Source: Solemya velum
Lineage: Eukaryota
NCBI GenBank assembly: GCA_048127485.1
Contig: JBHNWI010000006.1
Coordinates: forward strand, 46,345,538-46,366,778
Direction: 5' to 3'
Length of the DNA: 21,241 nt
The translations under genes were made by a program, and so were the position numbers. Position 1 is the first letter of the stretch. Each line of letters starts with the position of its first letter. The notes beneath the pieces are model-generated. The model searched no databases and was not told the DNA's origin. It saw nothing but the letters and a program-made list of their open reading frames with translations. Positions 1 to 11,650 of this stretch are shown here, in pieces.

Positions 1-148
1 AACTTATGTGTCCAAAAAAACTCGCTCATTGGATATAAATATAAATGTATCAACTGTTGCATTGAGAATAAGTTCTTGACGTTCAAACATTGATAAATAG
101 ATTAGCCACTATTACAGATTTTTAACCAGACTCCGGTATGGAAATACG

Positions 149-258
149 TAGACCGAAATTCCTCTGTCTCACGACGGCTATTACTACTGACGTAGGCCTG
201 TCTCGACAGGCCTACGTCAGTAGTAATAGCCGTCGTGAGACAGAGGAATTTCGGTCTA
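149..258. repeat. Perfect 110-bp palindrome (53-bp stems, 4-nt loop CTCG), flanked by the 9-bp direct repeat GGAAATACG at 140-148 and 259-267. Foldback/MITE-like insertion signature.
   Basis: Read directly. 149-201 is the exact reverse complement of 206-258. Identical 9-mers abut both ends. Confidence 0.85.
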
Positions 259-2095
259 GGAAATACGAAACGCAAAACTGACCGGTCAGTATTCGAAACC
301 CAAAATACCATTGCTGGAAAAAACACATTATACAAACTTTGTTGAGAACGAGAAACATTTTCTTAATAATTTGTAAATTTCATTTCGAGGTCAGATATGA
401 ACTTTTTAATATGGCATCTTTTATAAAATGTGACGTTTTATGTTGAGCTCAACAGAAAGATTACATTTCATAATGAATTACCTTATTTTCTATGTCAAAT
501 GGTGTTATCTCGTCAAACTGTTTTATAATACTAGCAGCTATTCTAAATGACTGTTATACCAGATTTATGCATACATGCAGTGTTTCATCGAGTTGTGACA
601 CTATAATACCTACGACATTATATTATTGCATTGATTGAAATGTAAACTGTTTTACAATTGATACTGTCAAAACAATTCGTATTAATAGCCTAGACCTTTC
701 ACCAACCCTGCATTGTAATATACGCATAAACAATGTGCGATGCCTGATATAGGTCTATGCTATTTTGTACTCATTGTCCATGGCATGCGATCTGAGCTGG
801 AATAGTGTTTTGTATTACTTTGTATGTCTTTCCGAGAAATGAGAACTAGTATCAATTATTCGTCGGGAAACACAACCGAATATAGAAACAGAAAACGGAG
901 AGTTTAGGCACTTTATACATTCGTCCACTTCCGTATACGGACCATTCAGTTGGTAGAAAATCTGTTGTTTAGGTTTTTAATAGATTTCCTTCAACTACTA
1001 AATATTATCTAAAACTAACACCTATACATAAATGAAGGTTAACGCGTATATTTTCATTTCTCCGAGTGTCTTTGAAAGCTCACGAAACGAGAGAAGTGAG
1101 TAGCTTAATATAGACCTACTGATGGGAACTCTGAGGCTATAATCGCAGTAAAGTCTAGGGTAGCCCACCGTAAAGAACAATTGAAAATAACAAATGTCTT
1201 AGTTTAATATACCAAGAAAGTAGGCAGACGTATATATACGAAAGTTTATGGAATAAAACTTCTGAATTCTTATTTTTTTGCTGACGTTTCAGTGAAGATT
1301 CTATATTGTAGTTTTACTGTTCTACCAACTTCTAAAATGCCAATCAAAGATGCTAATCAGACGAATTTTATTAAATTACCCCTATGTTTAGGAATGTTGA
1401 AATATACCGATTTTCTGTAGGGCCCGAATTAGGGATAAGCCGAAATATGACATGTTATAACGTTCGCGTAGAAGAAAAAGGTGCTTCGATACTGCTCCCA
1501 TTTCTTTGCTTGTCTCAGATGGAAGTGATTTCACCCAGGTAAGTCGTATGTAAGTCCAATTCCAAGTTTTGCATTTATGTTAATGTGATATATGGATAAT
1601 ATTACTTGTTTACGAATGTACTGGGTCACATTTCCAATACATAATATATACCTCTGTGTATAATATTAGGCCTATGCTTAGATTTACGCACTATGCCCAA
1701 TACTGTTACTATACACCATAGGGCGCGCGTTTTCGATAGATATCATAAAGGCTATAATGTTCCGACGGCTTTGATATGGATGGAGTTGGTTGGTACAAAA
1801 CTTATGTGAGAATTTGTATTTTTGCTTTACTCTGACCAAACATTATCGGACTAGCAATTGACTGTCATTGTTTGTGCATTGAATGTGAGACAATAGAAGG
1901 CGACATATCGTCTGCTTATCACGGTACAGACAGTTTTACGGGTTGTCGCCTGGGCGAGCTCGTTGGAGCACAAACGGGATATATTGCTATTGGTTTACCA
2001 ATTACACCGAGAGTCCAAACAAGATTTGTACCGTAAGTATTCTGAATATGCTAAAATAATGTTCAACTGAAGTTTTCAAACTTTTATTGAAATAG

Positions 2096-3864: not shown

Positions 3865-4680
3865 TAGTAGTAGTTTGTCTCACGCATTTTTCAGTTTGGG
3901 GGTTGGCAGCTCTGTGAATGGCTATCGTAATATTTTTAATAATGATTCAGTTTGCTCAAACTTCCAATTAGATGCCCAAACGCACGATCTTAAAGTCAAT
4001 GAATAAACCAAAGAAGCGAAACCTTTATCGTCAAAATCATAACAAATATTACAATAATGGTTGCTTTTGCAGTGCAAAGCCCTCTAATGTGTGCTTTACG
4101 GGGCTCAGGGATTGGGTTTGTTTGTTTTGTTCCAGCCACACAGACAGACATCCAAACGCAACTGCATACTATCAGTTTGCATGTATGAGCCATGGTTAGC
4201 TATCGCCCTCGTTTAGTGTTGAAAAACCAAAATGTCAAGGGAAATATCGACCCAATGTCTAAGGACATAGAATTGCACATACAGAACGGCAGCATTTTTT
4301 CTATGTACGTTTGTCAGGTGGCCCTGTGACGTCAGCTCGTTCAATCGTTCATATATATACCATGTGTTATTATATTACCAATTTTTTTTTATTTGAAGGT
4401 ATAAATGACTACAACAGAAACCGACTCGAAGACAGCATGTGGGTTTCACTATCACGTCAAAAGCGAAACATGCGAATACATCGGAACTACAATCACATGT
4501 GATATCAAAAGCACCCCACACCGTTTTCCCGGAAGATACTTTCTGCCGAAGGCAAGAATATATGTTGGTCAACTGGAAGAACATTCTATTGACTCAGCTC
4601 AAACGGTAACATAGCTACTGCATACTTTCACCTCGAATAAAACCCGGGGATTGTGTGCAGATTTACGTGAAAAAGTGAAG

Positions 4681-5220
4681 ATGCATTCGAGCAATGGTAG
4701 TGAGAAGAAAGACATTTCTGATAGGAGACAAAGAAGAATTTTTGGGTGTGATTGTGTTGACAAGTGCAGTTCTAATATCAAACATACTGAAACAGAGTTC
4801 AAACCAGAAGAAAACAGTGAAACAACCGAGAAAGCTAGTCAGAATAGTGACCTACAGCCATTTGAACTATGTACAATACACCCAAAGAATGAAAATTGTT
4901 CAACACACGGCGACGAGAAATGCTCGTTTTGTGATGACACATGTGCTGTTAAGTTTTGTGAGGATTGTTGTGTTTCGTGCTGCACAGCATGTTTCATTGC
5001 GATTCATTCTGAGAAAGGCTCATTTAAACGTCATATGATTAACGAACTGAGATTGAAATTTGATTCCATATGCCAAATACACCCTTTTCCTCTGGCGTTT
5101 TTCTGTAAAACCTGCTCTGTGGGTATTTGCATTGACTGTTTGGTTAAGAGTGGAAAAGACGGAGAATCACACCGGGGTCATGAAATTAATCATCTTGATA
5201 CTTATGTGAAGAAGAAGAAA
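4681..5220 (+). CDS. First coding exon of a B-box zinc-finger (TRIM-like) protein. It has two B-box motifs, C-x2-H-x7-C-x7-C-x2-C-x5-H and CQIHPFPLAFFCKTCSVGICIDCLVKSGKDGESHRGHEINHL. The exon ends at a GTAAGT donor at 5221.
   Basis: ATG at 4681 in a 180-codon open frame. Cys/His spacing matches B-box type 1 and 2 consensus. A canonical splice donor follows codon phase 0 immediately. A possible acceptor TTGTGTGCAG sits at 4651-4660 and a TATA-like CATATATATAC at about 4343. Confidence 0.6.
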
Positions 5221-5329
5221 GTAAGTATTGTTAGTTGAAATTCATCTCTTGTAATGTCTTACCATGGGAAGCAATGAAAAATCATCGATCTCGTACTTCC
5301 CTCACGTTTCGGGATATTGTGAATTTGTG

Positions 5330-8911: not shown

Positions 8912-9186
8912 GAGTGAGTGAGATGATTTATTTTAGAGGCTTGTTTAGCACAATTAAACTTCTGTCAGTGCGAGTAGCAGTAGAAATCGCCTAGAAGAAG
9001 GCGGGAAAAACCTGCGATCATTCGCAAGCCACCGATAGCTTTCTCACAAGCATGAACAGGATGCATTCGCCGTTGAAGTTTGTCACCAACGGGGCTCAAA
9101 CCCGGAACGTTGAGATGTGAGAGACACTCCGGGAATTAGATGCTGAGCGCAACGTCTTATCCCCTCGGCCACGGAAGCCCCGGGTA
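8912..9186 (-). mobile_element. tRNA-derived SINE (family Z1), minus strand. The head is the reverse complement of ...CGGAAGCCCCGGGTAC. The tail carries the CTCACTCACTCC motif.
   Basis: Reverse complement reads GTACCCGGGGCTTCCGTGGCCGAGGGGATAAGACG...GGGTTTGAGCCCCG. This resembles a tRNA-Ser/Leu-like D-arm and B-box. Its 3' end CTCACTCACTCC is shared with the SINE at 9672-9878. Confidence 0.5.
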
Positions 9187-9290
9187 CATATAATGGGTAA
9201 TGTACACCTACCATTTACTGTCGATACTGTCCCGGGTACATATAATGGGTAATGTACATCTACCATTTACTGTCGATACTGTCGATACTA
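9178..9290. repeat. 52-bp tandem duplication (2.2 copies, one mismatch) that starts inside the SINE head (CCCGGGTAC).
   Basis: Units at 9178-9230 and 9231-9283 are near identical. A partial third repeat of CGATACT follows. Confidence 0.9.
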
Positions 9291-9671
9291 CATATAGTCT
9301 ATAGACATTGGAACACTCCAACACTAATAGTCGGGAAATATCATATGTATATGAATTTCTCTTTTATGTTCTGTATTGTATTCATTACATTTCTCGTACA
9401 TTGAAACTTCGATTACATTTAGAACTATTTTGATAGAAGGTGGCTAAGAGCGGCGTCAAGTTGACACAGGGCTTGGTATCTGGTTTGTCATCGATTCTTC
9501 AATCCAGAAGTGGTTATCGGGATACCCTGGAAGTAAGTTGAGTTGATATTAATGAGAAATTTTAAAATATATAATCAATTGAGTGCCAGCAAGAAACTAT
9601 ACCAATCTGCAATTTCAATTCATGGACGTTGACAGCACGGGGAACGCCTTACTATGTTAGTTAGTTAATGA

Positions 9672-11555: not shown

Positions 11556-11650
11556 CTACACCGATGTGACACCAACGTAATACCACAGCACCGGCGAGAT
11601 ACCGGCGTAACACTATAGCACCGGCGTGACACCAACGTAATTACTACTAC
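11556..11650. repeat. Minisatellite, about 3 units of CACCGGCGTGACACCAACGTAAT... Same family as 14525-14570 and 19111-19316.
   Basis: Shares the core CACCGGCGTGACACC with the other two loci. Confidence 0.8.

Follow-up and report, generated by a model that had tools for sequence, protein, structure and literature searches.

Target-site duplications (TSDs) of 9 bp are characteristic of Mutator-like elements, including Phantom and Foldback, and those of Merlin measure 8-9 bp. TSDs of 8 bp are found in hAT, P and others, and TSDs of 2-4 bp in Tc1/mariner, piggyBac, PIF and CACTA. The MITEs of the Merlin (IS1016-like) type are short TIR elements, with TIRs typically of about 20-25 bp. In Drosophila Foldback (references within PMC3169594), two inverted arms fold back on each other between 9-bp TSDs, and these arms are hundreds to thousands of bp long, imperfect and made of degenerate tandem repeats. 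Maize Mu generates 9-bp TSDs (PMC2774946), and Tm1 of Meloidogyne, which is classified as Mutator/Foldback, has TSDs of 8-10 bp, mostly 9, and includes MITE-like members with foldback TIRs; the TIRs were 100% identical in 5 of the 61 Tm1 elements analysed (PMC3169594). On the side of the molluscs, MULEs occur in all species analysed, MITEs form a considerable part of bivalve genomes, and Merlin is rare in bivalves (PMC10294476). The bivalve MITEs described so far, for example the tandem-repeat MITEs of Donax trunculus (cited in PMC10294476), are small and abundant non-autonomous TIR elements with a central region, often of tandem repeats, and imperfect TIRs.

Here we describe a short inverted repeat in the protobranch bivalve Solemya velum. 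PMC13066446 credits the S. velum assembly to Chen et al. 2025 (Science 387:1001). We refer to the whole stretch of 21,241 nucleotides that was analysed as the window.

Structure of the inverted repeat

The inverted repeat is located in AT-rich non-coding DNA, 139 bp from the left edge of the window and about 4.4 kb upstream of a B-box exon. It consists of the following parts.

140-148, no strand assigned: left TSD copy, GGAAATACG, the same as 259-267 and directly abutting the palindrome
149-202, no strand assigned: left 54-nt arm (TIR), TAGACCGAAATTCCTCTGTCTCACGACGGCTATTACTACTGACGTAGGCCTGTC, 100% complementary to 205-258
203-204, no strand assigned: central dinucleotide TC, asymmetric, which together with the innermost pair gives a 4-nt hairpin loop
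205-258, no strand assigned: right 54-nt arm, the exact reverse complement of 149-202
259-267, no strand assigned: right TSD copy, GGAAATACG

Read directly, the locus runs ...ccggtat GGAAATACG (TAGACC...GGCCTGTC tc GACAGGCC...GGTCTA) GGAAATACG aaacgc..., where the brackets enclose the element. Its outer ends are TAGACCGAAATTCC...GGAATTTCGGTCTA, and the junctions between target and palindrome read TAGACCGAAATT. The empty-site form of this locus would be ...CTCCGGTATGGAAATACGAAACGCAAAACTG..., with a single GGAAATACG.

The two 54-nt arms of 149-258 were found to be 100% complementary by a script, by a repeat finder and by a pattern search. The bases G148 and G259, just outside the arms, cannot pair, which sets the length of the palindrome at exactly 110 bp. 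The repeat finder also proposed an extension to 67-nt arms at 91%, which we rejected, as the flanks add just 7 matches in 13 positions, the level of chance. A first, sequence-only reading of this DNA had described 53-bp arms around a 4-nt loop; this is the same structure described as folded, and the single-stranded DNA fold of 149-258 indeed showed a 53-bp stem and a 4-nt loop at -70.5 kcal/mol. The same reading called the palindrome perfect, which is correct for the arms and incorrect for the centre, where the TC dinucleotide is asymmetric. It also reported identical 9-mers at both ends, and our script confirmed GGAAATACG at both places, 140-148 and 259-267. As the bases adjoining this direct repeat on the outside differ (t/a before, t/a after), it measures exactly 9 bp.

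Among 200 shuffles of the palindrome, which folded with a mean of -16.4 kcal/mol, none was as good as the native sequence (z = -20). The chance of a 54-nt perfect inverted repeat is about 4^-54 per position, and that of identical abutting 9-mers is about 8e-6 under the local base composition. Neither the palindrome nor the 9-bp repeat arises by chance.

In terms of internal composition, the only word of at least 5 nt that is repeated within the arm is CTGTC, which occurs twice, and TRF detected no tandem repeats within 149-258. The GC content of the arm is 50% versus 32% in the flanks, and the arm is therefore foreign to its surroundings. On each strand, one reading frame runs open through the palindrome, and the two ORFs that cross it, of 47 and 77 aa, both extend into the flanks and are without a homologue. 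Accordingly, the structure of 149-258 is that of a DNA segment with TIRs, a TSD, foreign composition and no coding capacity.

Comparison with known transposons

TIRs at both ends, a directly abutting TSD and a size of 110 bp without coding capacity, which are all features of MITEs, are present at this locus. A MITE family is defined by multiple dispersed copies in the genome, each bearing a TSD of its own, and the window contains one copy. The TSD of 9 bp also lies within the range used for Mutator-like elements (about 9, 8-11). Accordingly, the 9-bp stagger points to a Mutator-like element (MULE/Phantom-Foldback) as the first candidate and to Merlin as the second, the latter being less likely in bivalves. 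To our knowledge, the terminal TAGACC fits the consensus ends of no superfamily, which counts against our preferred explanation.

The closest likeness is to the Phantom/Foldback MULEs, represented by Tm1 (PMC3169594) and maize Mu (PMC2774946). The S. velum element shares with them the 9-bp TSD and long TIRs that are able to form most of a short non-coding element. However, the TIRs of Tm1 and of FB are composite, with tandem motifs of 13-15 bp, whereas the arms of S. velum have no internal repeats, and the element of 110 bp is much shorter than those of the Tm1 type. The likeness is one of structure. In comparison with Drosophila Foldback, the two inverted arms, the fold-back and the 9-bp TSD are alike, but the S. 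velum arms are 54 bp long, unique and perfect. An assignment to Foldback in the strict sense was rejected: the 9-bp TSD and arms that take up nearly the whole element are present, though the tandem sub-repeats are absent from the arms. The Merlin MITEs are alike in TSD length and in their short TIR form, but their terminal sequence probably differs. A hAT element, which would leave an 8-bp TSD, was also rejected, as the repeat measures 9 bp and a reading of 8 bp needs an asymmetric extra G at one end. The described bivalve MITEs are similar as a class, but the S. velum element has no central region.

Database searches

The arm occurs once in the 21-kb window, and no duplicates of the flanks, such as a paralogous empty site, were found elsewhere in it. 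Neither was a transposase gene, or a longer element with the same ends, present in the window. Exact scans with terminal and inner arm words gave 0 and 0 matches in the JGI metagenomes, and likewise 0 and 0 in the GTDB (prokaryotic) genomes. As the DNA collections scanned, including those below, do not contain the S. velum genome, the negative results carry no information on the copy number in the clam.

In IMG/VR, a first scan returned 3 matches, all in one phage coding region; they share no more than the 20-mer with the arm and diverge directly beyond it, so we regard them as chance, and a second arm-word scan of IMG/VR returned 0. The lone match in PLSDB (22 nt, E = 0.3) was also rejected as chance, and the phage records contained no match to the arm. 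The 47-aa ORF had no match in an index of 5.8 billion protein clusters or in a HMMER scan of 1.84 billion representatives, a peptide search that detects other copies only where they have been called as ORFs. De Bruijn contigs would break at a perfect palindrome. The S. velum Logan contigs that we retrieved were about 1 kb long and all came from one repeat element, which is described below with the genomic context.

At gathering score, no Rfam family was detected in the window. Several miRNA precursor models scored below threshold on the palindrome, the best being mir-4524 with 44.4 bits (gathering score 68), and the scores were equal on both strands and all below the gathering scores. Such matches are what any long perfect hairpin gives.

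Beyond chance matches, the arm sequence matched nothing in the collections searched. The kind of element is well known.

Proposed origin and alternatives

We consider that 149-258 is probably a copy of a TIR DNA transposon of the foldback type, very short and non-coding, and either a MITE or what remains of the termini of a longer TIR element. Considering that the element consists only of TIRs, has an exact abutting TSD, is of foreign composition and codes for nothing, cut-and-paste integration by a DDE enzyme with a 9-bp stagger is the most fitting route. In this process, a DDE transposase supplied in trans would bind both of the identical 54-bp ends, cut the target GGAAATACG with a 9-bp stagger and join the 3'-OH ends of the element to it; host gap repair would then fill the two 9-nt gaps, giving the direct repeat. 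The element itself would represent two copies of one transposon end placed head to head, an arrangement expected from internal deletion, from abortive gap repair or from fold-back copying of a single end. The sequence-only reading, which proposed a recent insertion of a foldback/MITE-like element, is supported in part: the full structural signature is in place, whereas the transposase family, the mobility in trans and the multi-copy status are putative.

With regard to age, the earlier statement that there is essentially no divergence agrees with our count, as no difference was found in the 54 arm pairs and the 9 TSD pairs. Zero differences in 63 paired positions set the arm-to-arm divergence below about 4.6% (95% bound), or about 2.3% per lineage. 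The insertion is therefore young for this genome, and it may be polymorphic. Long perfect palindromes would tend to be lost by deletion, which is consistent with recency.

The alternative that survives best, although we consider it rather unlikely, is that a longer TIR transposon inserted with the 9-bp TSD and later lost everything between its outer 54-bp ends, by abortive gap repair after excision or by replication slippage across the hairpin, so that a dead stump remains at a single locus. The anatomy would be identical to that expected under our preferred explanation, the element indeed comprises just two ends that meet at an asymmetric junction of 2 nt, and no further copy was seen in the window or in the JGI metagenomes, in which the S. 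velum genome is not included. On the other hand, with perfect arms and a perfect TSD, both the insertion and the deletion would have to be recent, and MITEs that move in their short palindromic form are common. These two explanations can be separated only by the genomic copy number.

Two further possibilities, which even taken jointly appear improbable, concern the way in which the symmetry was made. On the one hand, the locus could be a founder at the birth of a MITE, where a single transposon end was copied back by fold-back replication or hairpin repair and integrated once; in this case, the arm would be single-copy besides its parent. On the other hand, the element could belong to a family that moves through a single-stranded hairpin, in which one arm is remade from the other, so that every copy is a perfect palindrome. 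If either of them is true, the perfect symmetry is mechanistic and not a sign of youth.

The sequence-only reading had also warned that such structures can be assembly artefacts, which our results make unlikely here. An artefact could arise from adapter or transposon-end oligonucleotides placed head to head in a tagmented molecule, or from a fold-back chimeric long read in the consensus. The stagger of Tn5 is 9 bp, equal to the repeat observed here, an adapter-adapter junction with a filled 9-bp gap would presumably look exactly like this structure, and the arm has no natural match in any searchable collection. However, a Tn5 tagmentation footprint, which is alike in having a 9-bp duplication flanking the ends, would show the 19-bp mosaic end CTGTCTCTTATACACATCT, and the junctions here read otherwise. 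In a screen of positions 101-310, we found no 12-mer, with 1 mismatch allowed, of common adapter and transposon-end sequences (Tn5 ME, Nextera, SMRTbell, PacBio ultra-low-input, ONT, TruSeq, MGI and MuA ends). The plasmid records contained no match beyond chance, and a search of arm substrings in the full text of papers returned one chance 14-mer, in an unrelated primer, and nothing else. Moreover, snap-back chimeras produce inverted flanks and arms derived from local sequence, whereas the flanks of this locus are direct repeats and the GC content of the arm sets it apart from its surroundings. Accordingly, we regard an artefact as highly improbable.

It is equally hard to credit that a hairpin DNA or RNA fragment was captured at a staggered break without any transposase, as filler DNA in end joining or through the action of LINE endonuclease/TPRT on a hairpin RNA, together with a fortuitous 9-bp duplication and a locus that might serve as a hairpin-RNA or miRNA-like gene: both the genome and the window do contain a LINE reverse transcriptase, and several miRNA precursor models respond below threshold, but the element has neither a poly(A) or microsatellite tail nor polarity. 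Moreover, no miRNA score reaches its gathering score or differs between the strands, and filler DNA is normally copied from nearby, while nothing in the window could have supplied the arm.

If the element belongs to a multi-copy family, it would represent one more young and possibly still mobile MITE in a protobranch bivalve. Such a family would aid the repeat annotation of S. velum, could be used as an insertion-polymorphism marker, and could flag an active transposase with a 9-bp TSD, probably Mutator-like, in this species. As a perfect palindrome of 110 bp, the locus may also be fragile or prone to deletion, and it could give rise to hairpin small RNAs. A transposon specialist would find nothing surprising in such an element.

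Genomic context

The window contains few long ORFs, and its recognisable coding pieces are a LINE reverse transcriptase, the B-box exon and a TBP-domain ORF. No tRNA was found in the 21-kb window. It is rich in other repeats, which include the LINE reverse transcriptase ORF, dispersed repeats and tandem repeats. The features are as follows.

2650-2939 and 14731-14988: dispersed repeat pair, 79% identity over 293 aligned columns
4651-5238, forward strand: B-box zinc-finger exon (PF00643, E = 6e-8), which among the recognisable host coding sequences is the closest to the palindrome
9179-9296 and 15121-15285: tandem duplications, the first with a 52-bp unit in about 2 copies (98% matches) and the second with an 88-bp unit in 1.9 copies
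11558-11641: short array related to that at 19111-19306
12319-14013, reverse strand: LINE reverse transcriptase ORF of 564 aa (RVT_1, E = 4e-36), grouped with 14050-14517 (reverse strand)
14625-14696 and 15005-15073: dispersed repeat pair, 92% over 72 bp
18085-18636, forward strand: intronless TBP-domain ORF, of which about 18112-18636 encodes 174 aa
19111-19306: GC-rich tandem array with 19/25/44-bp units containing CACCGGCGTGACACCGGTG

The LINE reverse transcriptase ORF showed 99% identity over 59% of its length to the S. velum protein ScPMuIL_009632, which is encoded on a 185-Mb contig, and its further relatives are bivalve LINEs with about 50% identity. The annotated model of ScPMuIL_009632 also has a glycosyl-hydrolase-18 domain, so a transposable element may have been absorbed into a chimaeric gene model. 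Both dispersed repeat pairs probably represent an unclassified interspersed element in the neighbourhood of the LINE.

The TBP-domain ORF sits within an apparent multi-copy repeat at window positions 17954-19115. A TBP-like protein with 99% identity was found on five Logan contigs. Together with the reverse transcriptase match, this marks the window as almost certainly nuclear DNA of S. velum. In all four contigs that were fetched (SRR5027968, SRR5027965, SRR5027974 and SRR5025435), the distance between the TBP-like gene and the contig end is identical. The two contigs that were aligned share their first base, window position 17954, and match the window with about 99% identity, and the longest contig stops at the tandem array. 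In the window, this array (19111-19306) contains many local inverted repeats and immediately follows the TBP-like repeat on its downstream side. The TBP-domain element may be borne by a transposable element.

Two TBP-like paralogues, BOV88_13710 and BOV97_13100 (84% and 73% identical, respectively), which are the nearest relatives with a name, are recorded at NCBI in entries for the 'Solemya velum gill symbiont'; the contigs that carry them measure about 1.1-1.4 kb. A TBP of the eukaryote/archaeal type on such short symbiont contigs suggests contamination of the symbiont bins with host DNA.
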